Shown: positions 2,250 to 43,625, counted from the stretch's first letter. The stretch: DNA of 44,878 nt from Clostridia bacterium (GCA_033813015.1 JAPXSN010000003.1:1-44878), one strand, 5' to 3'. The notes: generated from the letters alone by a model not told the origin. Program-made: numbers and translations.

Positions 2250-3709
2250 GCCAATCCGCCAAAAAGCCGAGCATCCTGTTTGCAGCAAGCGAATGCGCGC
2301 CCTTCGTCAAGACCGGTGGCCTCGCTGACGTCGCGGGCGCGCTTCCCGCGGCGCTCGCAAAGCTTGGCTACGACGTACGCGTCGCCATCCCGCTCTACAA
2401 GCAGATCCGCCGCGCGTACGGCGAGGAGCTGACCCACCTTTACGACGGCAAAATCCGCCTTGGCTGGCGCGAGCAGTTCCTCGGCGTGGAAGCACTTGTG
2501 CGCGACGGCGTCGCCTATTACTTCATAGACAACGAATTCTACTTCGGTCGGGACAACATCTACGGCGTGTTCAACTGCGATGAGGCGGAGCGCTTCGGCT
2601 TCTTCTCCAAGGCCGTCGTCGAGCTCATGGCGCGCCTGAGCTTTTACCCGGACATCGTGCATCTCAACGACTGGCAGACGGGCATGGCCGCGGCGCTGCT
2701 CAAAACACAGTACGCACACATCCCCGAATTTGCGCGCATCCGGACGCTGTTCACCATCCACAACCTGCGCTTCCAGGGCGTGTTCGACCGCGGCTTTGCG
2801 GATGAGCTTCTCTCCCTCGGGCCCATCGCCTTCGACCCGGACGCACTCGAATACTGCGGATGCGTCAGCTACATGAAGGGCGGCCTTGCGTTTGCGGACG
2901 CCATCAACACCGTGAGTCCGACCTACGCGCGCGAGATTCAGACGAGCTTCTTTGGCGAAACGCTCGACGGTATCCTTCGCGCGCGCGCCGGACGCCTCAC
3001 GGGCATCCTCAACGGCATCGACACCAAGGAATACGATCCCGCGACGGACAAGGCGCTCCCCGCGAACTTCTCGGTTGACGACATGGCGGGCAAAGCGCTG
3101 TGCAAGGCCGCGCTCCAAAAGGAGCTCGGACTTGAGGAAGACCCGAAAGCGCCGCTTCTCGCCATCGTTTCCCGCCTGACCTCGCAGAAGGGCTTCGACC
3201 TCGTCGAGCGCGTGCTTTTTGAGATGATGGAAAAGCCCGTTCAGCTCGCGGTGCTCGGCACGGGCGAGGCGCACTACGAGGGCTTCTTCAATTGGGTGCA
3301 GAAGCGCTTCCCCGGGCGCGCCGCCGCGCACATCGCATACAACGAAAGCCTCGCGCGGCGCATCTACGCGGGCGCGGACATGTTCCTGATGCCCTCGCTC
3401 TTCGAGCCCTGCGGCCTTGCGCAACTCATCGCCATGCGCTACGGGACCGTCCCCATCGTGCGCGAAACCGGCGGCCTTAAGGACAGCGTCAAATGCTACA
3501 ATAAATACGAGGACACGGGCACCGGCTTCTCCTTCCTCAACTACAACGCGCACGAGCTTCTCTACACCGTGCAGCACGCGGTCGATTACTTCCTGGAGGA
3601 TCCCGCGCTCTGGGCGCGTCTCGTCGCGCGCGCGATGCGGGAGAACTTTTCGTGGGACAAGCGCGCGAAGGAGTACGAGGAGCTGTACGCGTGGCTCGCA
3701 AATAATTGA
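2246..3709 (+). CDS. glgA: glycogen synthase (ADP-glucose type)
   Basis: N-terminal FAASECAPFVKTGGLADVAGALP signature and a GT5/GT1 C-terminal half (PSLFEPCGLAQLIAMRYGTVPIVRETGGLKDSV). Its ATGA overlaps the glgD stop. Confidence 0.93.
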   Translation: MSQSAKKPSILFAASECAPFVKTGGLADVAGALPAALAKLGYDVRVAIPLYKQIRRAYGEELTHLYDGKIRLGWREQFLGVEALVRDGVAYYFIDNEFYFGRDNIYGVFNCDEAERFGFFSKAVVELMARLSFYPDIVHLNDWQTGMAAALLKTQYAHIPEFARIRTLFTIHNLRFQGVFDRGFADELLSLGPIAFDPDALEYCGCVSYMKGGLAFADAINTVSPTYAREIQTSFFGETLDGILRARAGRLTGILNGIDTKEYDPATDKALPANFSVDDMAGKALCKAALQKELGLEEDPKAPLLAIVSRLTSQKGFDLVERVLFEMMEKPVQLAVLGTGEAHYEGFFNWVQKRFPGRAAAHIAYNESLARRIYAGADMFLMPSLFEPCGLAQLIAMRYGTVPIVRETGGLKDSVKCYNKYEDTGTGFSFLNYNAHELLYTVQHAVDYFLEDPALWARLVARAMRENFSWDKRAKEYEELYAWLANN

Positions 3710-3809
3710 TAATTGACAATTGACAATTAAAGGACGCCGCCGCGGCGGGGATGGAATCATTGACAATCGAGGGGACGATTGGAGAAGGCGGGCGGATGAT
3801 ATCCGCCCC
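3705..3809 (+). repeat. intergenic heptad-array/GC-hairpin element, copy A (compound)
   Basis: ATTGATA ATTGACA ATTGACA AT, then TAAAGGACG-CCGCCGCGGCGG (12-nt palindrome). A second partial unit follows (ATTGACA ATCGAGGGGACG), then the hairpin GGGCGGAT-GAT-ATCCGCCC. The glgA TGA stop (3707-3709) lies inside the first heptad. Confidence 0.8.
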
Positions 3810-3836: not shown

Positions 3837-3871
3837 TAGTTATTCGCCATTCATTATTAGCTATTAGTTAT
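3837..3871 (+). repeat. AT-rich heptad-phased repeat, family 2, copy 1
   Basis: TAGTTAT TCGCCAT TCATTAT TAGCTAT TAGTTAT, directly upstream of the glpK RBS. About 30/35 identical by eye to 43626-43660. Confidence 0.7.
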
Positions 3872-3884
3872 AACCGGAGGTTAT

Positions 3885-5375
3885 ATGAAATACGTCATGG
3901 CTTTGGACGCGGGTACGACCAGCAACCGCGCGATGCTCTTCGACGCGAATGGCCGCGCCGTAAGCTGTGCGCACAACGAGTTCCCGCAAATCTACCCCAA
4001 GCCCGGCTGGGTCGAGCACGACGCGATGGAAATCTGGGCGACGCAGTTCGGGGCGGCGCGCGAAGCCATGGCGCGCGTGAACGCGCGGGCCGAGGACATC
4101 GCGGCCATAGGCATCGCCAACCAGCGCGAAACGACCGTCGTGTGGGATAAACAGACCGGCGAGCCGGTGTGCAACGCCATCGTCTGGCAATGCCGGAGGA
4201 CGGCGGAATACTGCGATTCGCTCAAGGCGCGCGGCCTTGCGGAGTGGTTCCGAGGCAAAACGGGCCTGATGCTCGACGCATATTTTTCCGGCACCAAGCT
4301 CAAGTGGATGCTCGATCACATGCCCGGCGCAAGGGAGCGCGCAAAGCGCGGGGAACTGCTCTTTGGCACTGTGGACTCGTGGCTCATCTACAAGCTCACG
4401 GGCGGCCGTGCGCACGTGACGGATTATTCCAACGCCTCGCGCACGCTTCTTTTCAACATATACGCGCTCGACTGGGACGATGAAATACTCGCGGAGTTTG
4501 ACATTCCCCGGGAAATGTTGCCCAAGGTGCTGCCCTCGAGCCAACTCTATGCCCAAACCGACCCCGCGCTTTTCGGCGCGGCCATCCCTATCTGCGGCGC
4601 GGCAGGCGATCAGCAGGCCGCGCTGTTCGGGCAAAGATGCTTTTCGCCGGGCGAGGCGAAAAACACCTACGGCACGGGGTGCTTCCTTTTGATGAACACG
4701 GGGGATGTGCCTGTCGCGAGCGCGAACGGCCTTTTGACCACCATTGCATGGGGCTACGGCGGCCGCATCGAATATGCGCTCGAAGGCAGCGTGTTCATCG
4801 CGGGCGCGGCCATCCAGTGGCTCAGGGACGAGGTGCGCCTGATTTCCGCCTCGGCGGAGAGCGAAAAGCTCGCGCGGGAGGTGCCGGATACCAACGGCTG
4901 CTATGTCGTGCCCGCGTTCGTTGGCCTCGGCGCACCATATTGGGATCCTTACGCGCGCGGGGCAATCGTTGGCATCACGCGCGGGGTCAATCGAAGCCAC
5001 ATTGTGCGCGCGACGCTCGAATCCCTCGCGTACCAAACGTGCGATGTCCTGCGCGCCATGGAGGAGGATTCCGGCATCCGCCTTTTTGCGCTCAAGGCCG
5101 ACGGCGGCGCGAGCGCAAACGATTTCCTCATGCAGTTTCAGGCGGATGTCATCGAAGCGCCCGTTTTGCGCCCCAAGTGCGTCGAAACCACCGCGCTGGG
5201 CGCCGCGTATCTCGCCGGGCTCGCCTGCGGCTTTTGGAAGGACCGCGAGGAACTCGGCCGCCGCGTGCCCGAGCCGGACTGCTTCGCGCCGGACATGGAT
5301 GAGGCTATGCGCGCGCAAAAGCTCGCGGGCTGGAAGCGCGCGCTCAGATCGGCACGGGCGTGGGGCGAGGAATGA
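3885..5375 (+). CDS. glpK: glycerol kinase
   Basis: 496 aa; [54 protein letters not shown]; GGAGG RBS 6 nt upstream. Confidence 0.95.
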
Positions 5376-5457
5376 TTACCAATTGATAATTGACAATTGA
5401 CAATCGGGGGAACGTCGCCTGCGGGCGGGTTTATAGGGACCGATTCCATATCGATCC
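5372..5457 (+). repeat. intergenic heptad-array/GC-hairpin element, copy B
   Basis: (ATGATTA CCA) ATTGATA ATTGACA ATTGACA ATCGGGGGAACGTCGCCTGCGGGCGGG, then the hairpin GACCGAT-TCCAT-ATCGATC. Translating it creates the spurious MTIDNRGN... N-terminus of ORF 5390. Confidence 0.8.
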
Positions 5458-6943: not shown

Positions 6944-8193
6944 GGGAGAGGCAGGTCGGCGTGCTCGTCATCGGCGGGGGCCCGGCGGGGCTCGCGGCAG
7001 GCATCGCCGCGAAAGAAGCCGGGTGCGAAAGCGTGCTCGTCATAGACCGCGAGGACGCGCCCGGCGGCATACTCAAGCAATGCATTCACAACGGCTTCGG
7101 TCTGCACACCTTCGGCGAGGAGCTGACCGGCCCCGAATACGCCGAGCGGTATATTGAAAAGGCTTACGCCGCGGGCGTGGAGATCGCGTGCGGCGCGATG
7201 GCGATCGATTTGACGGGCGATCGGGTCGTCACGGTCGTGAGCCGCGAGCGCGGGCTGGAAGCCATCCGCGCGGGGGCTGTCGTGCTCGCGATGGGCTGCC
7301 GGGAGCGGCCGCGCGGTGCGCTCGCCACGCCCGGCGACCGCTGCGCGGGCGTGTACACCGCGGGCAATGCGCAAAAGCTCGTGAATATGAAAGGGCTCAT
7401 GCCGGGAAAGCGCGTGGTCATACTCGGCTCGGGCGACATCGGCCTCATCATGGCGCGGCGCATGACCTTCATGGGGGCGCATGTGCTCGCCTGCGTGGAG
7501 CTGATGCCGTATTCGGCAGGCCTTACGCGCAACATCGTGCAGTGCCTCAACGACTTCGACATCCCGCTCCTGCTCTCGCACACGGTCGTGGACATCAAAG
7601 GCCGCGCGCGGCTTGAGGGCGTGAGCATCGCGGCGGTCGATGAAAATCTCGTCCCTATCCCCGGCACGGAGCGCGAGCTTCTCTGCGACACGCTGCTGCT
7701 TTCCGTGGGTCTTCTTCCGGAAAACGAGCTTTCCTCCATGGCGGGCGTACCCATTTCGCCCGTTACGGGCGGCGCGGAGGTGGATGAAAACCTCCAGACC
7801 GGCGCCCCCGGCGTGTTCAGCTGCGGCAACGTGCTGCACGTGCACGACCTCGTGGACTTCGTTTCCGAGCAGGCGTCGCACGCGGGCAGGAACGCCGCGC
7901 TCCATGCCGCAGGCAAGGCGCTGCTGCGCGGGACAGTCCCTGTCGAGGCGGGCTTCGGCGTGGGCGGAGTCGTGCCGCAGTTCATCACGAGGGAGCCGGA
8001 CGGCGACGTGAAGCTGATGTTCCGGCCGCGCGGGGTCTATAAAAAAGCGCGCGTGATCGTCGAGCGCGCAGGGCGCGAAATTTACTCCAAAAAGGAAATG
8101 ATACTCGTGCCGGGCGAGATGGCCGGCGTGACGCTCAAAAAGGAAGCGCTCGGCATAGGGGCTGAACCTGTGCGCGTGCGCATCGAGGTATGA
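6940..8193 (+). CDS. NAD(P)/FAD-dependent (pyridine nucleotide-disulfide family) oxidoreductase
   Basis: Start at MRERQVGVLVIGGGPAGLAAG, with an ATGA overlap of the upstream stop. A second Rossmann motif is KRVVILGSGDIGL. Second member of the clostridial glycerol-3-P oxidoreductase trio. Confidence 0.85.
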   Translation: MRERQVGVLVIGGGPAGLAAGIAAKEAGCESVLVIDREDAPGGILKQCIHNGFGLHTFGEELTGPEYAERYIEKAYAAGVEIACGAMAIDLTGDRVVTVVSRERGLEAIRAGAVVLAMGCRERPRGALATPGDRCAGVYTAGNAQKLVNMKGLMPGKRVVILGSGDIGLIMARRMTFMGAHVLACVELMPYSAGLTRNIVQCLNDFDIPLLLSHTVVDIKGRARLEGVSIAAVDENLVPIPGTERELLCDTLLLSVGLLPENELSSMAGVPISPVTGGAEVDENLQTGAPGVFSCGNVLHVHDLVDFVSEQASHAGRNAALHAAGKALLRGTVPVEAGFGVGGVVPQFITREPDGDVKLMFRPRGVYKKARVIVERAGREIYSKKEMILVPGEMAGVTLKKEALGIGAEPVRVRIEV

Positions 8194-8664: not shown

Positions 8665-9708
8665 ATGGCGAACAAAAGCGGCGTCAGGCCCTACACTGCG
8701 CAGGAGCTTTCCGCGTTCTGCGCCGAGCTCGCTCTGGTGCTGCGCTCCGGCATGTTCCTGCCGGACGGCATGGCGGCCATGGCCAAGGAAAGCGGGGACC
8801 CGATCATCTCCAAGCTCTGCGCTGCTTTGCAGGGCGGCGGCAAGCTCGCCCCCGCGATGCGCGAAGCGGGCGCTTTTCCGTATTATATGGTGGGCATGGT
8901 GGATCTGGGCGAATCCGCGGGCAAGCTCGAGCAGGTTATGGAGGCGCTCAGCCTCTACTACGAGCGCGAGCACGCCGTGCGAAACCAAATTCGCTCCGCC
9001 GTGTTTTATCCGATGATGCTCGTGGCCATCATGATCGTTGTCATCGCGGTGCTGCTCATCCGGGTGCTGCCGGTGTTCGCCGATGTGTTCGCGGACCTCG
9101 GGGGCGCGGCGGGCGCGGTTTCCCCGGAAATCGCGGGGTTTGGCGAAATCGCAGGCTACCTCGCGCTCGCGCTCGCGGCGCTGATGCTCGCCTTCTGCGT
9201 CCACCTTTCCGTACGGCTACGCTCCGCCTCGGGTTACGCCGCGCTCATGCGCGGCCTCGCGCGCATCGGCTTCACGCGAAAGCTCGCGGAAAAAATCGCC
9301 GCTGGCCGCTTTGCCTTCGCGCTCTCCATGCTGCTCGAGAGCGGATATGCGCTAGACGACGCGCTCGCCAAGCTCCCTTCCATCGTGGATAACGACAGGG
9401 CGGGCGCGCAGATACTCGCCTGCCGCGAGGCCATGGCCCAGGGCGCTTCCTTCTCCAAGGCCGTCGAGGAAAGCGGCCTTTTCCCCGGCATGTATGCGCA
9501 CATACTCGGCGTGGGTTTCCGCGCGGGCGCGCTCGAGCGCGTGAGCGCGAAGGTCGCCGCCATCTACGAGGAGGAGATAGACCGCTCTATCTCCCGGCTC
9601 GTGGGCATCATAGAGCCCGCGCTCGTGGCGATGCTGTGCGTCATCATAGGGGCAATACTGCTCTCGGTGACGCTGCCCTTGATGGACATCATGGCCGGCA
9701 TCGGCTGA
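8665..9708 (+). CDS. type II secretion/type IV pilus platform protein (GspF/PilC family)
   Basis: 347 aa. Two T2SSF-like halves (FPYYMVGMVDLGESAGKLEQVMEALSLYYE and FPGMYAHILGVGFRAGALERVSAKVAAIYEEE), each followed by TM segments. GGGAGG RBS. Confidence 0.85.
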   Translation: MANKSGVRPYTAQELSAFCAELALVLRSGMFLPDGMAAMAKESGDPIISKLCAALQGGGKLAPAMREAGAFPYYMVGMVDLGESAGKLEQVMEALSLYYEREHAVRNQIRSAVFYPMMLVAIMIVVIAVLLIRVLPVFADVFADLGGAAGAVSPEIAGFGEIAGYLALALAALMLAFCVHLSVRLRSASGYAALMRGLARIGFTRKLAEKIAAGRFAFALSMLLESGYALDDALAKLPSIVDNDRAGAQILACREAMAQGASFSKAVEESGLFPGMYAHILGVGFRAGALERVSAKVAAIYEEEIDRSISRLVGIIEPALVAMLCVIIGAILLSVTLPLMDIMAGIG

Positions 9709-9719
9709 TTGGGGCGGTT

Positions 9720-10049
9720 ATGGCGCGGCGCATCGCAAAAAAAAATGCCTTTCTTCCGTGGTGGAGCGGGCTTCTTGTCACGGCGGCGGTCTTCACCATC
9801 TGCCTGACGCTGATGCTCTACGGCATCGAGCGCACGCGTCTGGGCGTGGCGCAAAAGGAGCTTGCGCTCGTCGAGCGCGCGGTCAACCGCGCGGTGGTTT
9901 CCTGCTACGCCATGGAAGGCTTCTACCCGCCGAGCATCGACTATCTCGTTGAAAACTACGGCCTTGAGGTCGACCGAACCAAGTATTATATCCACCACGA
10001 GGCCTTCGCCTCGAACGTCTACCCGACCATCTGGGTCGCGAGGAGGTGA
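9720..10049 (+). CDS. small membrane-anchored protein of the pilus-like operon (function unknown)
   Basis: 109 aa; basic N-terminus (MARRIAKKN) plus one TM segment; no G-F-T-L-x-E prepilin motif; 11 nt after the pilC-like stop. Confidence 0.6.
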   Translation: MARRIAKKNAFLPWWSGLLVTAAVFTICLTLMLYGIERTRLGVAQKELALVERAVNRAVVSCYAMEGFYPPSIDYLVENYGLEVDRTKYYIHHEAFASNVYPTIWVARR

Positions 10050-10054
10050 CGCGC

Positions 10055-10558
10055 ATGCTGCGGGATACGGGACGCGGCGTCACCGCGACGGCGGCTATGC
10101 TGCTGCTGTTCGCGGCCTTCGCGGTGCTGACTTTGCTGCAGGCGCTTTACGGCGCGGCCGTGTACGAGCGCGTGGTCGGCCGCATGGACGACGGATATCA
10201 TCTGCGCGCCTCGCTCTCCTACGTCGCCAACAAGCTCCACGCCCACGACGGCGCGGGCGAGATCGATATCGAGGATGCGGACGGACTCCCCGTGCTCTGC
10301 CTGTGGGATGAGGGAAAACAGGGCGTGACCTGCGTCTACTTCTTCGACGGCGCGCTGATGGAGCAGTATATAGAAGCTTCGACGCGCTTCGAACCCGCTG
10401 CAGGGCAGAGGATTGCCGAGCTTGCGGATTTCACCTTCAGCGAGGCGCAAGGCGGCTTCTCCTTCACGGCCTACACCTTCGAGGGAACCATGCGCACGCT
10501 CGACGTGCGCCTGCGCACGCCCGACGTGCGGCTTCGCGCCGCGAAGGAGGCCCCGTGA
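10055..10558 (+). CDS. pseudopilin-like protein with degenerate class III signal
   Basis: ATG at 10055 sits 8 nt after AGGAGG; an alternative GTG at 10046 overlaps the upstream TGA. N-terminus MLRDTGRG/VTATAAMLLLFAAFAVL resembles a prepilin leader but has Ala, not Glu, at +5. C-terminus carries the tandem DVRLRTP/DVRLRAA. Confidence 0.6.
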   Translation: MLRDTGRGVTATAAMLLLFAAFAVLTLLQALYGAAVYERVVGRMDDGYHLRASLSYVANKLHAHDGAGEIDIEDADGLPVLCLWDEGKQGVTCVYFFDGALMEQYIEASTRFEPAAGQRIAELADFTFSEAQGGFSFTAYTFEGTMRTLDVRLRTPDVRLRAAKEAP

Positions 10559-10968
10559 ACGCGCGCGGCGGCTACGCCTTCCTCGTGGAAATGACAGCGG
10601 TCATCCTTTTCTTCGCGCTCGCGGCGACGGCGGTCATCACGCTTTTCGTCGGCGCGGACAAGCGCGCGAAAGAAGCCGCGGCGCTTTCGGGCGCGGTGCT
10701 CGCGGCGAGCTCCGCCGCGGAGCTCGTGCGCACCTCCGCATCCCCCGAGGCTGACTTCTCGGCGCGCTACGGCGCGACGCAGGCTGAAGGCGGCTATGAG
10801 GCGTGGCTCGACCCGAGCTTTTTGCCGGGCGGGCTTCAGGAATACATCCTCCGGCTCGAGTGCGGGCGAGCCGGAGGAATGTGTGAGATGACGGTGTCCG
10901 TCATGGAAAAGGACGGGGAAGAGTTCTATTCGCTCTCCTGCGCACGCTTCATGGGGGGCGGCTCGTGA
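10555..10968 (+). CDS. pseudopilin-like protein
   Basis: GTGA start/stop overlap with GAAGGAGG upstream. N-terminus MNARGG/YAFLVEMTAVILFFAL has a Gly, an aromatic residue, a Glu and a hydrophobic helix, like a prepilin leader, with one extra residue before the Glu. Confidence 0.6.
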   Translation: MNARGGYAFLVEMTAVILFFALAATAVITLFVGADKRAKEAAALSGAVLAASSAAELVRTSASPEADFSARYGATQAEGGYEAWLDPSFLPGGLQEYILRLECGRAGGMCEMTVSVMEKDGEEFYSLSCARFMGGGS

Positions 10969-11444
10969 GCGCGCGGCCGCCGCTCAACCGGGCGGGTCGC
11001 GGCTTCACCGCCGTGGGAGCGCCGAGCATCATCATCCTGTTCGTGATGCTCTGCCTCGCGTGCTTCGCGGCGCTCTCGCTCGTGAGCGCGAACGCGGAAA
11101 TGCGTCTTGCCATGCGCATGGGCGAGAACACGGCGCGCTGGTATGCGGCCGACGCCGAGGCGCAGCGGCGGCTCGCCCGCCTCGACGAACTGCTAAGCTC
11201 CGGAATCCTCGACGAACCGGACGCGGCGGCAGCGCTCGCGGCCGAAAAGTATGTCTACGATCAAACGCAAGGGGAGGAGACCATCGCCTTCTATACGATG
11301 ATCTCGCACTACACGGCGCTGGAAACCACGGTGCGTCTCGAGGGCGGCGGCTATACTCTCATCCGCAACGCCACGATCGTGACCGGGGATCTGGAATATA
11401 CGCAACTGCCATTTTTATGGGACGGGGTGACGATTTATGATTGA
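10965..11444 (+). CDS. pseudopilin-like protein
   Basis: GTGA overlap. N-terminus ...NRAGRG/FTAVGAPSIIILFVML is a G-F-T start without Glu+5. Confidence 0.6.
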   Translation: MSARPPLNRAGRGFTAVGAPSIIILFVMLCLACFAALSLVSANAEMRLAMRMGENTARWYAADAEAQRRLARLDELLSSGILDEPDAAAALAAEKYVYDQTQGEETIAFYTMISHYTALETTVRLEGGGYTLIRNATIVTGDLEYTQLPFLWDGVTIYD

Positions 11445-12504
11445 AAAACTGCTCATCGAGGCCATCAGCCTCAACGCATCCGATGTGATCATCGCGCCTG
11501 GCTCCCCGCTTGCGTTTAAGGCCGCGGGCGTGGTCAGCCCTTCCGGGGACACGCCGCTGACCCCGGCCAAGACGGAGGCGCTTGTGCGCGAGATCTACCA
11601 GCTCGCCGGAAACCGCAGCATGGAGCGTTTCCAAAAGACGGGCGACGACGATTTCTCCCTCTCCATACCGGGCGTGGGCAGGTTCCGCACAGCCGTATAC
11701 CGCCAAAGGGGCTCCTGCGCGGTCGTGATCCGAATCGTGCGCCACGAGCTGCCCGACCCGGCGCTGCTAAACATCCCCGCGGGCGTCATCAACCTCTTTA
11801 CGGCCAAAAAGGGCCTCGTGCTGATCACCGGCCCGGCAGGCAGCGGCAAATCCACGACGCTTTCGTGCATCGTGGACCGCATCAACAAGACCTTGCCATG
11901 CCATATTATCACCATCGAGGACCCCATTGAGTACCTTTACAAGAACGACAAGAGCATTGTGAGCCAGCGCGAGGTCAGCCAGGATACCGAGGATTTCAAG
12001 AGCGCGCTGCGCTACGCCTTGCGCCAGGCGCCCAACGTGATCCTCGTGGGCGAGATGCGGGATTATGAAACCATCAGCATCGCCATGACCGCGGCGGAGA
12101 CCGGGCAGCTCGTGCTCTCGACGCTGCACACCATCGGCGCGGCCAAAACCGTGGACAGGATCATCGACGTGTTCCCGCCGGGCCAGCAGCAGCAGGTGCG
12201 CGTGCAGCTCTCGATGACGCTCAACGCGGTCGTCTCCCAGCAGCTCATCCCCACCGTGGACGGCGGCGTGACGCCCGCATTTGAGGTGATGATCGCAAAC
12301 CCGGCTGTGCGCAACCTCATCCGCGAGGGCAAGGCGCACCAGATCGACAACGTGATCTACGCGAACCCGGAGACCATGGTTTCCATGGACGCAAGCATCA
12401 CGCAGCTCTACCGCAAGGGGCGCATCAGCTACGACAATGCGGTCAACTTCGCCTCCGATCCCGACTCCATGACAAGGCGCATCGATCGCAACTACGTCAA
12501 CTGA
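11437..12504 (+). CDS. pilT: PilT-family type IV pilus retraction ATPase
   Basis: 355 aa; Walker A GPAGSGKST, Walker B VILVGEMRD, His box STLHT, and the PilT-specific AVRNLIREGKAHQI motif. Overlaps the upstream ORF by 8 nt. Confidence 0.9.
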   Translation: MIEKLLIEAISLNASDVIIAPGSPLAFKAAGVVSPSGDTPLTPAKTEALVREIYQLAGNRSMERFQKTGDDDFSLSIPGVGRFRTAVYRQRGSCAVVIRIVRHELPDPALLNIPAGVINLFTAKKGLVLITGPAGSGKSTTLSCIVDRINKTLPCHIITIEDPIEYLYKNDKSIVSQREVSQDTEDFKSALRYALRQAPNVILVGEMRDYETISIAMTAAETGQLVLSTLHTIGAAKTVDRIIDVFPPGQQQQVRVQLSMTLNAVVSQQLIPTVDGGVTPAFEVMIANPAVRNLIREGKAHQIDNVIYANPETMVSMDASITQLYRKGRISYDNAVNFASDPDSMTRRIDRNYVN

Positions 12505-12606: not shown

Positions 12607-13590
12607 ATGGAAAAGCTGAACTTCGGCATACTCGGCACGGGCTGGATTGCCAACGAAATGGCAGATACCCTCGCGCGCTCCGGCGACGCGAAACTTTACG
12701 CCGTGGCCTCGCGCGAGCTTTCGCGGGCGCAGACCTTCGCCGCGCGCTATGATATCCCCAAGGCATACGGCTCCGATGCGGATCTGCTCGCCGACCCGGA
12801 TGTGGATGTCGTCTACGTCGCCTCCCCGCACTCCCGCCACGCGGAACAGATGAAGGCCTGCCTCGAGGCGGGCAAGCACATACTGTGCGAAAAGGCGTTC
12901 ACCGTCACGGCAAAGGAGGCGCGGGAGGTGCTCGCCCTCGCGCACGAAAAGAAGCGCGTCGTCGCGGAAGCGCTCTGGCCGCGCTACATGCCCATGGCAA
13001 AAACCATAAGGGCTTTCTGCGAAAGCGGCAAAATAGGCCGCGTCTACGGCGTATATTGCAACCTCGGCTACCCGGTGGCGACCGTGCCGCGCCTGCGCGA
13101 ACCCGAGCTCGCGGGCGGCGCGCTGCTGGACGTAGGCGTCTACACGCTCAACTTCGCGGCGCTCGTGCTGGGCAGCGAAGTCACGGGCTTCACGAGCTCG
13201 GCCGTCAAAAACGAGCTCGGCGTGGATACGCAGGGCTCCATCGCGCTGACCTACTCGGGCGGCCGCATGGCCACGCTCCTTTACAGCGTGCTCGGCGCCA
13301 CGGATCGCCTGGGCATCATCTACGGAGAAAAGGGTTATGCGCTGATCGAAAACATCAACAACTTCGAATCCTTGCGCGCTTATGACGAAGATTACAGGCT
13401 CATCGAGCACATCGAGCGGTCCCCGCAGGTCACGGGCTACGAATACGAGGTGCGCGCCATAGTCGAGGCCATCCAAATGGGCGCGACCGAGTGCCCCGAC
13501 ATGCCGCACAGCGAAACCATCCGCATCATGGAGTTGATGGACGACATTCGGCACGGGTGGGGGCTGTGGTATCCGGGGGAACGGGAGTAA
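12607..13590 (+). CDS. Gfo/Idh/MocA family oxidoreductase
   Basis: MEKLNFGILGTGWIANEMA Rossmann start and a CEKAFT motif. GAAGGAG RBS 6 nt upstream, so the listed upstream Met at 12586 is less likely. Confidence 0.85.
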   Translation: MEKLNFGILGTGWIANEMADTLARSGDAKLYAVASRELSRAQTFAARYDIPKAYGSDADLLADPDVDVVYVASPHSRHAEQMKACLEAGKHILCEKAFTVTAKEAREVLALAHEKKRVVAEALWPRYMPMAKTIRAFCESGKIGRVYGVYCNLGYPVATVPRLREPELAGGALLDVGVYTLNFAALVLGSEVTGFTSSAVKNELGVDTQGSIALTYSGGRMATLLYSVLGATDRLGIIYGEKGYALIENINNFESLRAYDEDYRLIEHIERSPQVTGYEYEVRAIVEAIQMGATECPDMPHSETIRIMELMDDIRHGWGLWYPGERE

Positions 13591-13663
13591 TTGTCAATTG
13601 AAAATGGTCAATTGACAATCAAAAAACGCCGCCGCGGGCGGAGAATTTCCGCTTTTGAAGCGT
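13590..13663 (+). repeat. intergenic heptad-array/GC-hairpin element, copy C
   Basis: ATTGTCA ATTGAAA ATGGTCA ATTGACA ATCAAAAAACGCCGCCGCGGGCGG, then the small hairpin CGCTT-TTG-AAGCG. Begins at the last base of the TAA stop of the oxidoreductase gene. Confidence 0.75.
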
Positions 13664-13681: not shown

Positions 13682-13738
13682 GTAGGGGCCGATATGGAAT
13701 CGGCCCCTACGGATTTCACCCGATTTTTAATTGTCAAT
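13682..13738 (-). repeat. intergenic heptad/GC-hairpin element, copy G (tail-to-tail with copy C)
   Basis: Read on the minus strand: ATTGACA ATTAAAAATCGGGTGAAATCC GTAGGGGCCGAT-TCCAT-ATCGGCCCCTAC. The hairpin core CCGATTCCATATCG is shared with copy B. The TGA stop of the 342-aa adhesin (13734-13736) lies inside the heptad. Confidence 0.7.
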
Positions 13739-14762
13739 TCTTCCTGCGGCTGCGCACGAGCACGAAGCCCGCAAGGCTCGCGGAAAGGCCGAGCAGTAGC
13801 ATGGCGTAGCCCAAATAGTTGACGTCGCCCGTCTGCGGCGCTTCGATCGGAATCTGCGGCGTCGGGATGCCCTCGAAAACGGCCGTGATGGTCAGCTGGC
13901 GATTCGTGGTGACCAGGACATACGGCAGTGTCTCCTCATAGGGATCGCCCGGCCCCGGGGTTACGACCTCGCTGGTGACCGTCACCCGGGCTTTATCCCA
14001 CATGAGCGTGCTGGGTTCCCACCCGATGAATCGGTAGCCCGGCAGCACCGGATCGCCCGCCATGATCACGGGCTTGGTTTCGGAATTGACGACGTCATCC
14101 GGCCAGAAGACCACGCCGGGCTGCTTGTTCTGATGGTAGAGGGTGTAGGTCGCCCTTTCATGGACCGCCATCTGGGTGAAGAAGCCTGTGGTAGTGCCCT
14201 CGAAGAAGCGTACGAGGCGCCGCTCGTCACCTCTGCCCTGATAATCCTTGCTCATGAGCGTATATTCGGGCGTGGTCCAGCCGACGAAATTATAGCCGGG
14301 CATCGCCACCACCGCGCTTGGGATGATGGGGCTGGTCGCATGCTCATCCGGGGGATCATCGGGCTGTCCGTCAACCGGGGGCGTGATGTCGTATTTGAGG
14401 ATGTAATGATCCTCCACGGCAATCCACTGTGCGGTAACGGTCCGCGCGGAACAGTCGTTTAGCAAAAAAATGGTCATCGTATCACCGGGCTCGCCGAGCA
14501 GGCTTCTGTAATTCCAGCAAAGCAGCGCATATCCGGGTCTGGAGCAATCCGCCTCGGTGGGTAAGCTGAATGTAATTCTTGCTGAAACGCCGCTTCCGGT
14601 CACGGGTACCTCTATCGACGCCGGTGTCGGAGAGCCGCCGTTCGCGTTAAAGTGAACCGTCACCGTCGTTGGCGCGGCCAACGCAACTCCCCCGAGACTC
14701 AGCACGAGCGCGAGGACGACGGCCAGCGCCGCCAACTTTTTGAAGATGCTTCTGGTTTTCAT
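13734..14762 (-). CDS. cell-wall-anchored surface protein with Listeria-Bacteroides (Flg_new/InlB B-repeat type) repeats
   Basis: Signal peptide MKTRSIFKKLAALAVVLALVLSLGGVALA. Three G-Y-x-[FL]-x-[GC]-W repeat cores (PGYALLCW, PGYNFVGW, PGYRFIGW). C-terminus APQTGD plus a hydrophobic stretch plus RSRRKN is a sortase-type sorting signal. GAGGGGGA RBS. Confidence 0.85.
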   Translation of the reverse strand: MKTRSIFKKLAALAVVLALVLSLGGVALAAPTTVTVHFNANGGSPTPASIEVPVTGSGVSARITFSLPTEADCSRPGYALLCWNYRSLLGEPGDTMTIFLLNDCSARTVTAQWIAVEDHYILKYDITPPVDGQPDDPPDEHATSPIIPSAVVAMPGYNFVGWTTPEYTLMSKDYQGRGDERRLVRFFEGTTTGFFTQMAVHERATYTLYHQNKQPGVVFWPDDVVNSETKPVIMAGDPVLPGYRFIGWEPSTLMWDKARVTVTSEVVTPGPGDPYEETLPYVLVTTNRQLTITAVFEGIPTPQIPIEAPQTGDVNYLGYAMLLLGLSASLAGFVLVRSRRKN

Positions 14763-15134: not shown

Positions 15135-18100
15135 TCAATCCTCTTCCTCGATGGCGCGCACCTTCTTGCGGATGAACAGACTCGCCGTGAAGATGACCGC
15201 GATCAGCGCAAACGCCGCAACGAAGATGATCAAGCCGGTGTTGCCGGTCTGCGGCGTGCCAAGCGGGGGCTTGGTCGGCGTGGGCGAGGGATCGGGCGTC
15301 GGGTCGGGGCCGCCCTCTTTAACGAACTTCGCCGTCACGGCGAGCGTGTAGGTCGTGGTTTTGAGAATGTAGGGCTCGCCCTCCGTCGGGGTGACGATCT
15401 GGGTGCTGACGCTGACTGCGGCCGTGGACCAGTCGAGCGTGTTGGGCCTCCAACCCTTGAAGATGTAGCCGGGCAGGTAGGGGGCTCCGGCAAGCTCGGG
15501 CGGGGTCAGGGAGTCGACCACGTCGCCGGGCCAGTTGGTGACGCCGCTGACGTAGCCCTGGTAAAGCAGGGTGTAGCGGGCCTCCTCGACGATCTCCATG
15601 CCGGTGAAGGAGCCGTAGGCCGTGCCTTCATATAGAGTCGTGATGATCTCGACGCCGTCGACGATCTCGCTCGTTTCACCCGTCTTCTCCCACGCCGGAG
15701 CGGACCAGCCGGAGAAGTTATAGCCGTCCAGGCTCACCACGGCGCTCGGGGAAATGGGACTCGCGCCCTCTTCATCCGGCGGGTTCGCGGGCTGCCCGGG
15801 CACGCTGCCGAGTATGGCGTAATGCAGCGTATAGTGTTCCCGCTCATTTATCGGGATGAACTGCGCCACGGTGGACGCCTCGAGGTAGTGCGTGTAGATA
15901 AGGCCGTCGGGCGAGATTTCCAGGCGGGAGCCATTCTCCGCATAGTCGCTCCCGCTGATGCTCGCGGGACTCCAGCCCGTGAAGCGGTGGCCGTCGAGCG
16001 AGGCGGTCTCGTCCCCGATGGTCTGCGCGGAGGTTCCGCTCTTCATATCGGGCAGCACGGCGCCCGCGGGGCCGGTGAAGGTGAGCTCGTAGATGTACAC
16101 ATGCTCTATTTTGCCGAAGCTGCCCGTGACGTCGATCTTCTTGGTGTAGGTCGTAACCCACTGGTCGAGCGTTTCGTCAAAGCGGGTTTCGCCTTCCACG
16201 GCCGGGGTGCCGTCCCAATCGAGGGAGCCGGGGTTCCAGCCGCCGAACAACTTGCCGTCCTCGCTGGGCTCGGGCGCGATGGTCGGGAGCGAGGGCGGGT
16301 TGGTGACGTTGACGTCGAGGTGGTCATAGCTGCTTGAGCCGCCGTGTACGGTGTAGTCCACGATGTAGACGTATTCGTTGATGCAGCCCTTCTTGACGAG
16401 CCTGCCCTCGATGGTCGCGGAGTAGACCGTGGTCTTGACGAAGCGGTTGTCCGAGTTGAGCGTATAGCCCAGCACCGCAGCCCATCCGATATCCGCGGCG
16501 GGCGCGCCGTTCTGCTTCCAGCCTTCGAAGGCGTAGCCGAGCTTCGCGGGTGTCAGCGTCGTCAGCGCGGGTTCGCTCGTCTGGTCGGCGAGGTCATTGG
16601 GCCATGTGCCCGGATCGGCGAGGTCCTTGTCGCCGGTGTAGGTGAGGTTCCAGAGTTCTTTCTCAACGATGTCGTTCATCGTGAAGGAACCCGTGACCTC
16701 TGCGGAATAGACGCGGATGGTGATGTACCTATCCCCAACATCGTCGTAGCGGTAGTTGATGCCTGCCGTGCCCCAGTCGAGCGTCGCGTCGCTCACGCCG
16801 GCGCCGTTCTGCGTCCAGCCGGAGAAGGAGTGGCCGTCGAGCGTCGGGTTGCCCGCAAGGCTCGGCTTGCTCGCGGAGCCGCTCACGTTCGCGGGCGGAT
16901 TGCCTATGGTAAGGTTCCTGCCTTCGAGGTCCTTGTACGGCTGACCCGCGATCACATAGGTGAGGTTATAGATGGTTTCCTCGCCGCAGTTCATCGTGAA
17001 GTCGCCCACGACGGCCGCGCTGTACGTCAAAACTTTGATGAATCTGTCCGCAGCCTCGTCGTAGCGGTAGCTGACTGCCGCGCTGCCCCAGTTAAGCGTC
17101 GCGTCATCCACAGCGGAGCCGCTCTGCTTCCAGCCTGTGAAGGTATGGCCCTGCACCGAAGGCGCGCCTGCGAGGGCGGGCTTCGCCGCAGCACCCGTCA
17201 CGTCCGCGGGGCGATTGTTGATGGTGAGGTTGATCCCGTGCGGCGCCTGGTACGGCTCGTTGGCGAACGAGTAGGAGAGGTTGTACAGAGCCTCCTCCTC
17301 GCCCATGTTGCGCGCGAAGCTACCCGTGAGGTGCGCCGTGTAGATGGTCACGTCTATGGTGCGGTTGTGCGCGCTGTCAAAGTCCTGCCGCGTGCTCAGG
17401 GTCCAGACGATGTCCGCGCTCGCGCCAATCGCGGAGCCGCCCTGCGCCCAGCCGCCGAAGGTATGGCCCTTCATCGAGGGGCTTCCGCCGAGGGCGGGCA
17501 TGGTCGGGGAGGCGACGACGTTGGCGGGCATGTTGCTCGCGCTGAGTATCGCGCCGTCGGTCGGGTCGGTATACGGGCCGCCCGCGATGCCGTAGCTGAG
17601 GCTGTATTCGGTCGCCTGGCCGTGCTCATTTTCAGTCACGGTCGCGGAGGCGCCGAGCATATAGCGGGAATACTGCACGAACACCCACACGCCGTCGCGC
17701 TTCTCGAGCTTCTCCTCAAAGGTGGCGGCGGAGTTGCCCCAGGGCAGCATCTGGCCTTCGCCGTAAAACTCATCGGGCTGGCCGAGCGTGACGCCCCACC
17801 CCTTGATGGAGTAGCCCGGCGGTACCGTGGGCAGCGCCTGTGCGCTGAGCGGGGTCGAACCCCTTTGCTGCGCGTCGTACGCACCTATCGTTGCTCCGGT
17901 GTTGTTGGTCACATGGTAATCCACGATGTACTCTTCCACGCTCAGGATGTTCTTGCTGAGCGCGCCGTTGATGGCGAGCTTGTAGCGGATCGTATGCACC
18001 GCGCCCACGCCGGGCTGCGTGCTCGGAACCGTGCCCTCGGAGATGATGCTGAAGTCGCCCTGCTCGAGCGGCGGCGTCTGATCCCAGCCGCCGAAGCTGT

Positions 18101-20755: not shown

Positions 20756-20789
20756 GGTGCCGGAATCGAACATCCGCTCGGAAGATCCC

Positions 20790-20872
20790 GACGAACCGGC
20801 ACACCCGTCCAAAGGCGGGGTCGCAAAGCTAGAGGGCCTAAACGCGAAAGCGCATGGCAGCCAGTTGCCGAA
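20790..20872 (+). promoter_or_regulatory. GEMM-I (c-di-GMP-I class) riboswitch-like aptamer
   Basis: CGGCACA CCCGUC CAAA GGCGGG GUCGCAAAGCU AGAG GGCCUAAAC GCGAAAGCGC AUGGCAGCCAGUUGCCG. It matches, block by block, the conserved GGCAAAC / hairpin / ACGCAAAGC / GGCCUAAAC / GUUNCCG pattern of GEMM-I as I recall it from V. cholerae Vc2. CGGCA and UGCCG can close P1. Located in the 5' leader of the CDS at 20958. Boundaries are approximate. Confidence 0.75.
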
Positions 20873-22650: not shown

Positions 22651-23517
22651 TTGTACGGCATATTGGCTCTGTTCGCCGGCGTGCTGATCGCCGTGATGGT
22701 CGCGCTCAACGGAGGTCTTAGCGCGCAATACGGCGTGTATTCCTCAACGGCGATGATCCATTTCATCGGCCTCGCCGTCATCGCTGCGCTGTGCCTGGTG
22801 CGAAGGGAAAAGCTCTCCTACAAAAGCATCCCGCTTTATCTTTTTCTGGGGGGCGCGCTTGGCGTGCCGCTCACCGTGTGCAACAACGTTTCCTTCGCGC
22901 GCATCGGAGTTTCCTCCATGCTGGCGCTCGGCCTGCTCGCGCAGGGCGTCGCGGGCATATTCGTGGACCATTACGGCCTTTTCGGCATGCCCCGGCGCCG
23001 GTTCAACGCGAAGTCCCTCGTCGGCCTCGCGCTGACGCTCGCGGGCGTCCTCGCGATGACGGAGGCGTTCGATCCGCTCGCCGTGCTCGCCTCCCTGGCC
23101 GCGGGCGTCATATTGCTTGCGGCGCGCACGCTCAACGCGCGCCTTGCGCAGCGCACGAGCCTGTATGCGAGCACGTTTTATAACTACGTCGTCGGCCTCG
23201 CGGTGGCCCTTGCCGTCTGCCTGCTTTTCGGCCGAAGCGAGCCTATGTTCGCCTCCTTCGCGCTCTCGCCCAAAGCGTGGATCTACTTCGGCGGCCCGCT
23301 GGGCGTGTGCATCGTGCTGCTGCTCAACTACACGGTCGCAAAGGTTTCCGCGCTCAACATGTCGCTGTTACTGTTCATCGGGCAGGTGTTCGCGGGGCTA
23401 ACAATAGACGGGCTGCTGCTTGGCGCGTTTTCGCCGCGCCTAATCATAGGCGGCGTGCTGGTCGCCGCGGGCACGGCGGCGAATGTGGTGATGGAACGAA
23501 GGGCAACCGTCGATTGA
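22651..23517 (+). CDS. DMT-superfamily membrane protein (DUF606/YdcZ-like, duplicated)
   Basis: About 10 TM helices in two similar halves. TTG at 22651 follows GGGAGGTGG; the alternative TTG at 22633 has no RBS. The TGA stop lies in heptad element copy E. Confidence 0.7.
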   Translation: MYGILALFAGVLIAVMVALNGGLSAQYGVYSSTAMIHFIGLAVIAALCLVRREKLSYKSIPLYLFLGGALGVPLTVCNNVSFARIGVSSMLALGLLAQGVAGIFVDHYGLFGMPRRRFNAKSLVGLALTLAGVLAMTEAFDPLAVLASLAAGVILLAARTLNARLAQRTSLYASTFYNYVVGLAVALAVCLLFGRSEPMFASFALSPKAWIYFGGPLGVCIVLLLNYTVAKVSALNMSLLLFIGQVFAGLTIDGLLLGAFSPRLIIGGVLVAAGTAANVVMERRATVD

Positions 23518-23540
23518 CCATGGACAACGGACAATCGGGC
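23513..23540 (+). repeat. degenerate heptad-array element, copy E
   Basis: ATTGACC ATGGACA ACGGACA ATCGGGCGG, followed by the terminator hairpin. Confidence 0.55.
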
Positions 23541-23549
23541 GGAATGCAA

Positions 23550-23584
23550 ACGCCCTTCGCTTGAGCGGCGAAGGGGCGTTTTAT
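23550..23584 (+). terminator. rho-independent terminator
   Basis: ACGCCCTTCGC-TTGAGCG-GCGAAGGGGCGT followed by TTTTAT. Confidence 0.7.
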
Positions 23585-29564: not shown

Positions 29565-29647
29565 GGCGGACGGATAATATCCGCCTCTGCGATCCCGCCC
29601 GCGGCGGCGTTCCCCTGATTGTCAATTGTCAATTTTCAATTGTCAAT
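29565..29647 (-). repeat. intergenic heptad-array/GC-hairpin element, copy D
   Basis: Minus strand: ATTGACA ATTGAAA ATTGACA ATTGACA ATCAGGGGAACGCCGCCGCGGGCGGG ATCGCAGA GGCGGAT-ATT-ATCCGTCC. The second hairpin is of the same type as in copy A. Confidence 0.8.
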
Positions 29648-29682
29648 TGCCCTCGCTCCGTCTATTCTACCACATTCCCTTG

Positions 29683-32308: not shown

Positions 32309-33090
32309 ACTGCTTTGACACGCACGCGCATCTGTGCGACGAAAAATTCGATTCCGACCGCGGCGAGCTGATCGCTTCCCTGCCCGAATCGGGCGTGGCG
32401 CTTTGCATCAACGTCGCCTGCGAGGCGGACGAGTTCGGCGCGAGCGTGGAGCTGACGCGCCGTTATCCCTTCCTCTACGGAGCCTACGGCATCCACCCGC
32501 ACGTCGCCTCAAATCCCGGCGAAAATTGGGAAGATAAGCTTCGCGCCGCGCTCGCGGACAAAAAAGCCGTAAGCCTCGGTGAGATAGGTCTCGATTATCA
32601 CTACGATTTTTCCGAAAGGCCCGACCAGAAGCGCGTTTTCGTGCGCCAGCTCGAGATGGCCAGGGAGCTGAACCTTCCCGTCCAGCTCCACATTCGCGAG
32701 GCGTTCGGCGACTGCATGGATGTCCTGCGCAGCCACCGCGACGGCCTTCGCGGCGAGATGCACTGCTATTCCGGCTCCATCGAAACCGCGCGGGAGTGCC
32801 TTGACCTCGGCCTCTACATCGCGCTCGGCGGCGCGGTTACGTTCGAAAACGCCCGCCGCCTAATCGAGGTCGCGGCCTACATACCGGACGATCGCCTGCT
32901 CGTTGAAACCGACTGTCCGTACCTGACGCCCGTACCGTTTCGCGGCCGCCGCAACGACCCCTCGAAGATCGTCCACACAATCCGGCGGCTCGCGGAGATC
33001 CGCAATACGACGGCGGAGCATGTGGCGCGTATGACGTTGGAGAATGGGAAAAGGCTGTACGGGATAACAGAGCAGCCTGTCACATATTAG
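32305..33090 (+). CDS. tatD: TatD family metal-dependent hydrolase/DNase
   Basis: The TTG start overlaps the GNAT stop (TTGA). FDTHAHL, EIGLDYHY, VQLHIREA, ETDCPYLTPVPFRG. Confidence 0.85.
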   Translation: MNCFDTHAHLCDEKFDSDRGELIASLPESGVALCINVACEADEFGASVELTRRYPFLYGAYGIHPHVASNPGENWEDKLRAALADKKAVSLGEIGLDYHYDFSERPDQKRVFVRQLEMARELNLPVQLHIREAFGDCMDVLRSHRDGLRGEMHCYSGSIETARECLDLGLYIALGGAVTFENARRLIEVAAYIPDDRLLVETDCPYLTPVPFRGRRNDPSKIVHTIRRLAEIRNTTAEHVARMTLENGKRLYGITEQPVTY

Positions 33091-34385: not shown

Positions 34386-34502
34386 GCTTCCCCCTCAGGT
34401 TTAAAACTTAGATTTTTGACTACGTTATTCTATTATAAACCAAAAGTCAAGTCAATAATCCGCATTTTTGAATCGACTTGTTATGAAAAAGCCCCGGAAT
34501 TG

Positions 34503-43471: not shown

Positions 43472-43498
43472 TCGGCAATTTCATTGCCAATTATCCAA

Positions 43499-43516: not shown

Positions 43517-43525
43517 GTGGTTTTG

Positions 43526-43558: not shown

Positions 43559-43625
43559 TCAACTCATTTTCACATCATTTTTTAAGGAGCGGCTCCGTAA
43601 AACAGATGCCGCCCCGACTCTAAAT

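Follow-up and report, generated by a model that had tools for sequence, protein, structure and literature searches.

The 44,878-nt stretch of Clostridia bacterium DNA analyzed here (GCA_033813015.1 JAPXSN010000003.1:1-44878; hereafter the window, meaning the whole stretch) carries a dispersed, rapidly evolving mosaic intergenic repeat, whose full unit comprises an array of heptamers, (ATTGAYA)3-4, a purine run, and a GC hairpin that we term hp1. The evidence supports its placement with the dispersed repeats of the REP (repetitive extragenic palindrome), BOX, and BIME (bacterial interspersed mosaic element) type rather than with the classical MITEs (miniature inverted-repeat transposable elements). 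We give moderate credence to a more specific reading, namely that the copies form a family of mosaic, REP/BIME-type intergenic repeats restricted to one lineage, which turns over by recombination and slippage on its arrays and whose benefit, if any, would be at the RNA level. Any functional role of the repeat is putative.

Architecture of the heptad-hairpin unit

The window has a G+C content of 62%, and the AT-rich heptamer ATTGACA occurs in it 14 times, as against 2.58 +/- 1.57 expected, a count reached in 0 of 100 shuffles; likewise, a two-heptad pattern with up to three mismatches finds 29 matches against 0.25 expected. Across the whole window, the period-7 arrays reported by Tandem Repeats Finder (TRF) lie in intergenic DNA only, as judged from crude gene calls (longest open reading frames [ORFs] passing a third-position GC filter). 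The shuffles, the two-heptad scan, and TRF thus uphold the claim of a preliminary description of this DNA that the frequency of ATTGACA exceeds what composition predicts. On every feature tested (a 7-nt period, two or more units, and confinement to non-coding DNA, as given by TRF and the enrichment), the window arrays fit the class of heptanucleotide arrays, which, according to the summary of Mrazek 2007 in PMC4679880, reportedly make up the most frequent type of long simple repeat in bacterial genomes. The TRF arrays are:

3704-3728: period-7 array, ATTGACA type
5380-5404: period-7 array, ATTGACA type
13589-13619: period-7 array, ATTGACA type
29618-29649: period-7 array, ATTGACA type
43498-43512: array of a second heptamer family
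43630-43647: array of the second heptamer family

In the four copies that we designate A-D, the array is followed in a constant order by AT(C/T), a purine run ending in AACG (GGACG in A), and hp1, a hairpin of 4-5 bp, in agreement with the common post-array block proposed earlier (ATC-RRRRAACG-CGCC(T)GCGGGCGG). A covariance model of the unit, run on the window and on relatives as the preliminary description had suggested, finds exactly four window sites with E-values of 1e-10 to 3e-13 and zero copies devoid of an array. It does not recover the other copies listed there, and the count of full units accordingly stands at four (A, B, C, and D) rather than 'at least seven'. The components of the four copies are:

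3705-3725, plus strand: copy A, first array, ATTGATA ATTGACA ATTGACA, holding the glgA stop codon TGA (3707-3709)
3714-3763, plus strand: copy A, covariance-model hit, 50.8 bits
3737-3748, plus strand: copy A, hp1 variant with the type II stem CCGC-CGCG-GCGG, with the purine run TAAAGGACG in front
3759-3765, plus strand: copy A, lone extra heptad ATTGACA, overlapping a small hairpin, CAATCG-N6-CGATTG (3764-3781)
3790-3808, plus strand: copy A, second hairpin hpX, GGGCGGAT-GAT-ATCCGCCC
3837-3871, minus strand: inverted array of the second heptamer family, AACTAAT AGCTAAT AATGAAT GGCGAAT (TRF period 14 = 2 x 7)
5375-5381, plus strand: copy B, degenerate unit ATTACCA, abutting the glpK stop codon (5373-5375)
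5382-5402, plus strand: copy B, array, ATTGATA ATTGACA ATTGACA
5391-5442, plus strand: copy B, covariance-model hit, 58.2 bits
5415-5428, plus strand: copy B, hp1 with the type I stem (U)CGCC-UGCG-GGCG(G), with CGGGGGAACG in front
5438-5457, plus strand: copy B, degenerate hpY-type hairpin, ACCGAT-TCCAT-ATCGAT
13590-13617, plus strand: copy C, array, ATTGTCA ATTGAAA ATGGTCA ATTGACA
13606-13655, plus strand: copy C, covariance-model hit
13621-13641, plus strand: copy C, A6 run and hp1, CCGCC-GCG-GGCGG
13650-13662, plus strand: copy C, small hairpin CGCTT-TTG-AAGCG, within a unit of ~85 nt common to the same-contig paralog at L120:3406-3490
13682-13710: hpY, GC-rich hairpin with a 12-bp stem, GTAGGGGCCGAT-loop-ATCGGCCCCTAC, located between convergent genes and common to copies C and G
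29620-29647, minus strand: copy D, array, ATTGACA ATTGAAA ATTGACA ATTGACA, in the 5' untranslated region (UTR) of a methyltransferase gene
29581-29631, minus strand: copy D, covariance-model hit, 61.8 bits
29595-29607, minus strand: copy D, hp1, CCGCC-GCG-GGCGG, with CAGGGGAACG in front
29565-29585, minus strand: copy D, second, hpX-like hairpin, GGCGGA-N9-TCCGCC, directly before the ribosome-binding site (ATG at 29554-29552)

The second hairpins noted in the preliminary description are thus real at 3790-3808 and 13682-13710, looser at 29565-29585, and degenerate at about 5438-5457. The hpX stem of copy A is kept in its orthologs in the relatives L162 and L192, both with the loop TCTAT, and the inverted second-heptamer array at 3837-3871 forms the closing end of element A, immediately before the glpK ribosome-binding site. 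The array of copy C is a quasi-palindrome that itself forms a hairpin, and its first base is the last base of the TAA stop codon of a GFO/IDH/MocA oxidoreductase gene. Copy D is located within the 5' UTR, behind a conserved extended -10 promoter. The palindromes, set against a REP-type core of ~20-40 nt, measure 29 nt for hpY (12-bp stem), 19 nt for hpX, and 13-14 nt for hp1 (4-5 pairs), with hpY giving folding z-scores of -4.8 on the plus and -6.9 on the minus strand. The two stem types of hp1 (I, CGCC/GGCG; II, CCGC/GCGG) retain pairing through two double compensatory changes. Such changes can also arise from templated repair within DNA palindromes, and since selection for structure and palindrome repair are both possible, they do not decide between a role in RNA and one in DNA.

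Turnover at orthologous sites

Ten same-species contigs show no differences over A, and the six that reach across B show none there, giving no sign of phase variation through within-species switching; four same-species short-read contigs end inside element B, as is expected of a multi-copy repeat. Copy C has a paralogous copy 16 kb away on the same contig, with ~88% identity over ~85 nt. Locally, the window contains 4-5 loci per 45 kb, as compared with 1 per 22 kb in the relative L203.

Among relatives of the same genus, whose flanking genes are 82-88% identical, the elements differ in number, orientation, and composition. The glgA-glpK spacer holds one unit plus hpX in the window, one unit in L192, and five tandem units of 61-75 nt each in L162 (4889-5320), in which the hp1 loop alternates between TGCG and GCG. 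A CRISPR-like reading of this regular L162 array was discarded, as its 'spacers' are the heptad arrays themselves. In both L162 and L192, the array has replaced the last glgA codons, such that the C-terminal ..QLTIDN* (six residues) is array-encoded. The glpK-glpA spacer of L162 carries hpY and (ATTGACA)4 in the opposite orientation and no hp1. The 5' UTR of the methyltransferase gene, which is divergent from metS, is empty in L204, has one unit in the window and three tandem units in L203, and in L205 contains an inverted element bounded by an AGTGAAT-type array at one end and a reversed ATTGACA array at the opposite end; the extended -10 promoter of the gene is kept in 4/4 of these genomes (window, L203, L204, and L205). 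Mosaic motifs and a variable number of tandem units, the hallmarks of REP/BIME repeats, are hence seen here as one, three, or five units and swapped hairpins at orthologous sites.

The preliminary description had further noted that the copies are co-oriented with their genes, which is true in the window; however, it is not a rule of the family, as orthologous sites in relatives are inverted.

Partial and doubtful sites, and the second heptamer family

The remaining sites of interest are as follows:

13725-13738, minus strand: copy G, array remnant ATTGACA ATTAAAA, holding the TGA stop codon (13734-13736) of the gene at 13734-14762 (minus strand)
23513-23533, plus strand: copy E (doubtful), degenerate array ATTGACC ATGGACA ACGGACA, holding the stop codon of a YdcZ-family gene
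43498-43512, forward: (AGTGAAT)n array, with an inverted counterpart at 43630-43647, the two flanking a canonical hairpin and T-run terminator between convergent genes

Copy G is a partial copy, with one exact heptad and the large hairpin hpY but without hp1. Copy E is a doubtful member, a degenerate array lacking hp1, followed by a canonical terminator (23553-23575) and a T-run. The other two candidates of the preliminary description do not belong to the family: the single heptad of copy F (34501-34507) is merely the stop-codon context of a small HTH_1 gene, and the mini-array at 22023 has a 6-nt rather than 7-nt phase and is part of a conserved leader, which in L203 contains one ATTGACA.

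The second heptamer family (AGTGAAT, AGCTAAT, AACTAAT) occurs at 43490-43650, the site of a canonical bidirectional terminator, and, inverted, at 3837-3871 just upstream of glpK. In L160 and L205, it is this family, rather than ATTGACA, that stands before hp1.

Distribution of the heptad array in bacteria and phages

A one-genome-per-species scan with ATTGACAATTGACAAT finds at least 119 loci, and a scan of viral contigs at least 120 loci, with 261 arrays among the matches listed. These loci were chosen by the motif itself and are hence a biased sample. Nearly all of the listed genome-scan matches lie within longer in-phase arrays of ATTGACA, ATTGATA, ATTGAAA, ATGGACA, or ATTAACA. Their hosts, again among the matches listed, include Bacteroidota, Cyanobacteria, Planctomycetota, Chloroflexota, Patescibacteria, a Parabeggiatoa, and many genomes of Oscillospiraceae, Faecousia, and Dysosmobacter, the nearest repeat-bearing genome being a Christensenellales metagenome-assembled genome (L034); for MetRS, the closest named relatives of the window protein bear the annotation 'Clostridia bacterium'. 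The family had earlier been treated as specific to the window; instead, the heptad array is widespread and only the attached hairpins are lineage-specific. At the listed Clostridia loci, each lineage attaches a distinct GC hairpin, whose tri- or tetraloop is rich in pyrimidines when read on the array-sense strand, and half-elements often face each other across an AT-rich center. Inverted array pairs number at least 25 in the genome collection and related loci, often around a core of 20-190 nt; the window has convergent inverted pairs at C/G and at the 43.5-kb site.

A metagenome scan with the hp1 20-mer (GGGGAACGCCGCCTGCGGGCGG) returned mostly unrelated sequences (a ParB motif, GC-rich coding DNA, and a 4.4-kb gut replicon family), with true relatives at 5 loci only, two of which are the key orthologs used above. 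The same 20-mer is found in a conserved, GC-rich structured region of the unrelated ~4.4-kb family, represented by L134 (28-49 and 4423-4444 of 4450) and ~25 similar human-gut contigs, including L133, L140, L141, and L155; one of these contigs repeats its end at its start and is therefore probably a small circular replicon. In the unrelated, low-GC contigs L135, L145, L183, L195, and L199, it follows a GACACTTTCCGC-loop-GCGGAAAGTGTC hairpin, which may be a structured RNA or a repeat.

A further arrangement is seen in L255 (IMG/VR 3300018475_000788), a 10.5-kb phage structural module encoding portal, scaffold, and capsid proteins, in which five to six palindromic elements of ~110 nt occupy the intergenic spacers. 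They have the form [ATTGACA x4]-hairpin-GATTTTAA-hairpin-[inverted ATGGACA x4], with heptad arrays at 1913-1940, 3853-3880, 8042-8069, 8701-8728, and 10239-10266. This density of elements is unusually high for a phage.

These elements raise the alternative that the repeat is a non-autonomous transposable element (a MITE, a REP doublet forming hairpin [REPIN], or a palindrome-associated transposable element [PATE]), which moves between host and phage, with the arrays as terminal inverted repeats or as the target of a tyrosine (Y1 or REP-associated tyrosine transposase [RAYT]) or DDE transposase. The inverted pairs enclosing a core in every gene context, the four near-identical ~110-nt copies in the single phage contig, the empty site beside filled ones in the methyltransferase 5' UTR, and the sharing of hairpin modules by host and phage are all in keeping with it, and a fixed arm of 4 units (28 nt) would be expected from the copying of a master element. 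Against this, close relatives differ in arm length (2 to 7 units), many copies have no inverted partner, and tandem amplification of units is not a product of transposition. Pfam searches detect no transposase in 30 window proteins and 10 phage proteins, nor a RAYT (Y1 transposase) gene among the window proteins, and none lies beside the copies examined. Target-site duplications are absent around the copies in the window, those at the D locus, and the four in the phage, and the elements consequently fall outside the definition of a MITE. ISDra2 targets TTGAT; IS200/IS605-type ends were, however, rejected, as the half-elements are inverted rather than direct. We therefore regard a transposable element as distinctly improbable. 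The earlier judgment that the repeat is REP/BOX-like and not an active MITE stands, given near-identical copies with neither a window transposase nor target-site duplications.

Promoter, terminator, and RNA-family readings

As TTGACA is the -35 consensus, the preliminary description had allowed for the arrays binding sigma-A RNA polymerase. More generally, they could be DNA-level binding sites for the polymerase or for a transcription factor, like the TTTTGAT heptads of the cholera toxin promoter. In the Vibrio ctxAB promoter, heptad direct repeats are indeed regulator sites, and the unit contains the palindrome CAATTG. However, there is no -10 hexamer at a spacing of 16-18 nt, and the sole matches of a scan for sigma-70-type promoters, rejected as such, are those of the array to itself (TTGACA-17-GACAAT). 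Most window copies lie at gene 3' ends, including those of a convergent gene pair; copy D comes after its own promoter; and convergent gene settings outnumber divergent ones by 15 to 3 among the Clostridia matches listed. Moreover, the sites are freely lost or inverted, and arrays also occur in Bacteroidota and cyanobacteria, which use other promoter types. Bacteroidota promoters are not known to use TTGACA. We find this explanation hardly credible.

A second possibility is that the elements are transcription terminators, bidirectional between convergent genes, with the arrays as their A/U-rich flanks. In its favor, the terminator scan picks up the minus-strand hp1 of C and A as GC hairpins with T-rich tails: in C, the A6 run and hp1 read on the minus strand as a hairpin followed by U6 (13641-13629; tail TTTTTT), and in A the tail is TCCTTTAATT. 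Furthermore, arrays flank canonical terminators at E and at the 43.5-kb site, such terminators follow many arrays in relatives among the matches listed, and the half-elements of Oscillospiraceae and phages end in a hairpin and GATTTTAA. However, C and A are the only copies whose antisense hp1 passes the scan, for the purine run is G-rich rather than A-rich in most copies and the antisense U-tract is consequently usually missing. A U-tract is missing from hp1 in the sense orientation, where the sequence that follows is GAT(G/C)GGAT, GTTTATAGG, AGAATTTCC, or GATCGCAG. The hairpin is not an efficient sense-orientation terminator, because the 5' UTR of the conserved methyltransferase/RsmI operon accommodates up to three copies (one to three in the genomes with sense copies); other copies lie inside the phage structural operon. 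Terminator-like hairpins are, besides, no more frequent after arrays (13/68) than at ordinary genes (28/204). We thus consider the terminator explanation improbable.

Rfam 15, searched at the gathering threshold and at permissive E-values with A, B, C/G, and the triple D element of L203, yields no credible family, the best sub-threshold match being PrrB_RsmZ over copy A (19.4 bits versus a threshold of 44; E = 0.09). Thus, the elements match no catalogued RNA family, a check that the preliminary description had proposed.

Stop codons, orientation, and array length

A feature absent from the preliminary description is the position of the upstream gene's stop codon, which is contained in the array in A, E, F, and G and directly adjoins it in B and C. 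Among the matches listed, the stop-to-array distances cluster at -19, -12, -5, -1, and +2 to +13. As 7 mod 3 = 1, three forward heptads give TGA in all three frames, with the reverse strand remaining open. This three-frame closure explains where forward arrays are tolerated; as a function it is only putative. The arrays show a significant orientation bias as counted (34:12, 58:36, and 117:69 among the matches listed). In the viral set, the only one retested, removal of the stop-supplying arrays leaves 68 versus 59 among the matches listed and the bias is gone. The bias arises mostly from arrays that end the ORF, as a forward array must, and we therefore do not use it as functional evidence.

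The commonest array length is 4 units in each of three data sets (87/186 in the genome collection and 97/261 in the viral set, among the matches listed, and 14/26 in the window lineage), with a peak at that value instead of the monotonic decay that simple slippage predicts. This regularity is in keeping with the explanation whereby the array, through its 7-nt period, its ~4 units, and its placement by the stop codon, acts as a sequence-independent, cross-phylum cis-signal at the RNA level, with the hairpins as accessories, a primary function of the family in 3' UTR and intercistronic control, and the repeat dynamics as secondary. The reader of such a signal may be the terminating ribosome or RF2, ribosomal protein S1, cold-shock-domain proteins (~7 nt per domain), CsrA, or an RNase, some of which echo the binders put forward in PMC4679880. 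Consistent with it are the same preference for four units in the unrelated GGGAATC arrays of Xanthomonas, the tight placement of arrays against stop codons, also seen in PMC4692102, the sense arrays between the portal, scaffold, and capsid genes of a compact phage late operon, the freedom of heptad position 6 with retention of ATTGA-A, and the weak sub-threshold PrrB/RsmZ-like match at copy A. On the other hand, orthologous sites are empty, inverted, or amplified without visible constraint, there is no association with gene function, stop-supplying arrays account for most of the orientation bias, and GGA motifs are absent from A-rich variants such as copy C. We judge this explanation rather unlikely.

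Comparison with known repeats

Two families of bacterial heptamer arrays offer close parallels. Rehm et al. 2015 described the G-rich heptamers GGGAATC in Xanthomonas and GGGGAYT in Nostoc, which are transcribed, unlinked to insertion sequence (IS) elements, and variable in length between species; the Xanthomonas version occurs at ~185 loci per genome with 70-75 convergent inverted pairs per genome, and a G-quadruplex explanation has been offered for both (PMC4692102). Like these, the arrays studied here have a 7-nt period, an intergenic location, a preference for 4 units, frequent convergent inverted pairs, length differences between relatives (orthologous arrays differ in unit number), and proximity to stop codons (window copies A, B, C, E, and G). 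In contrast, their unit is AT-rich (ATTGAYA), cannot form a G-quadruplex, and bears a stop codon in every unit; they are joined to conserved GC hairpin modules, with whole units amplifying in tandem; their hosts are Clostridia and the phages thereof; and they seem to turn over more quickly than the Xanthomonas repeats, for which 83% conservation between two species is reported (PMC4692102).

The TAACTGA arrays of marine Beggiatoaceae, Cyanobacteria, and Bacteroidetes (MacGregor 2015; PMC4679880) likewise close all frames on the forward strand, and S1, cold-shock proteins (Csp), or CsrA have been proposed as their binders (PMC4679880). The unit is nearly the same (ACTGATA versus ATTGATA/ATTGACA), present in 2-6 copies and intergenic, with three closed frames on the forward and an open reverse strand, and a patchy cross-phylum spread. 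However, the Beggiatoa arrays are mostly just upstream of start codons, where they replace the Shine-Dalgarno sequence, whereas those studied here are mostly at stop codons and the downstream genes keep GGAGG; further, the hairpin modules present here are not described for the TAACTGA repeats (PMC4679880). We consider the heptad array to be the counterpart in Clostridia and their phages of the stop-proximal ~4-unit arrays of Xanthomonas, Nostoc, and Beggiatoaceae. Literature searches with the motif strings found nothing relevant.

The REP/BIME/REPIN repeats (Gilson, Higgins; Bertels and Rainey; Nunvar) are multi-copy extragenic palindromes of Enterobacteria and Pseudomonas. They resemble the elements reported here in their mosaic motif types, strain-variable tandem units, inverted doublets, and transcription at gene 3' ends; they differ in lacking the 7-nt tandem array, which is the linear conserved part here, and the hp1 stem is far shorter (4-5 bp) and without a conserved GTAG-type head. 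The Correia, RUP, and BOX MITEs are similarly small, non-coding, and multi-copy, with filled and empty sites among relatives, and sometimes supply stop codons or terminators to their neighbors; unlike them, our elements show no target-site duplication or known parent IS and have heptad arms of variable length and tandem amplification. Rho-independent terminators share the GC hairpins at gene ends, the antisense U-run of some copies, and the arrays that often flank true terminators, but hp1 in the sense direction is without a U-tract, and 5' UTRs and operon interiors tolerate it.

What is new is an example of such arrays in Clostridia and their phages, with a unit that does not form a G-quadruplex but has the 4-unit, stop-proximal, inverted-pair layout of Xanthomonas, and the linkage of the arrays to REP/BIME-like hairpin modules that amplify, invert, and vanish between species of one genus. 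The part that deserves attention is the recurrence across phyla of a 7-nt period, ~4 units, and inverted pairs by stop codons. One could generalize that a stop-proximal array of ~4 units, often mirrored, is a bacterial and phage cis-signal in which period and length matter rather than sequence; this is speculative and, in our judgment, unlikely. If true, the G-quadruplex explanation of the Xanthomonas and Nostoc repeats would not be general, as the AT-rich unit cannot form that structure, and some conserved machinery would have to gauge a length of ~28 nt past the stop codon; this might be the terminating ribosome, an RNA binder with several OB-fold domains, or an enzyme of replication or repair by which 7-nt repeats are generated.

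A proposed model for the REP/BIME-type family

Under the lineage-restricted REP/BIME-type reading that we favor, the element is a polar unit, with an ATTGAYA array (usually 3-4) leading to an AACG-ending purine run and the 4-5 bp hp1, optionally extended by hpX or hpY and closed by an inverted second-heptamer array. The 7-nt arrays may act as built-in homology arms, on which slipped-strand mispairing and unequal or inverted recombination would bring about growth and turnover, while spread to new sites would need array-array recombination or a trans-acting enzyme from outside the window. The elements would be transcribed as 3' UTR, intercistronic, or 5' UTR RNA, copy D being the strongest case. 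Their likely role, still putative, is in RNA structure at gene ends. Any benefit would lie in the AU-rich, weakly structured, all-frame-closing array parting the terminating ribosome from stable hairpins, which might in turn shield the 3' end or weakly terminate transcription, mainly antisense. The elements would be tolerated mainly at gene ends, where a forward array can even serve as the stop codon.

Several observations weigh against this model. The mobilizing enzyme and target-site duplications are both absent from the examined copies, which leaves the model without a means of dispersal. The hairpins fold equally well on both strands, such that folding is no guide to the strand; the folding energy of the 70 nt after 201 arrays does not differ from that at 687 ordinary gene 3' ends, and the failure of terminator-like hairpins to be enriched after arrays points the same way. 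The loss of orientation bias in the viral set counts similarly, as do the stop-destroying heptad variants, which at 26% observed versus a neutral expectation of ~33% are not clearly depleted, and a survey that reports no selection for back-up stop codons in bacteria (PMC6764699). Moreover, the four-unit preference and the 5-6 elements in a compact phage operon fit a functional signal better than neutral junk. Finally, the lineage is covered by ~60 kb of the source contig and ~140 kb of relatives (~200 kb).

Should the arrays act as recombination arms, the transposase-free spread of small palindromic elements would be accounted for; should the expression machinery read them, they would constitute an unrecognized class of 3' UTR or intercistronic signal. 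In practical terms, the elements break short-read assemblies and shift annotated stop codons.

Other features of the window

20788-20872, plus strand: aptamer of a c-di-GMP-I riboswitch (67.9 bits), in front of a transglutaminase-like gene
33087-34500: low-GC island (0.45 versus 0.62) with a Fic-domain gene, in a variable slot between a TatD gene and the small HTH_1 gene
15135-20429, minus strand: 1764-aa protein with Listeria-Bacteroides (Flg_new) repeats, whose internal DNA repeats of ~300 nt dominate the direct-repeat output
8665-12504: type II secretion/type IV pilus-like operon (T2SSF, DUF4860, T2SSE) beside the glycerol genes, kept in L162

The ORF listed from 20754 overlaps the riboswitch, and its true start is hence probably further downstream. 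The slot occupied by the Fic island holds an HTH_18 regulator in L203, LytTR and DUF3021 genes in L205, and nothing in L204.

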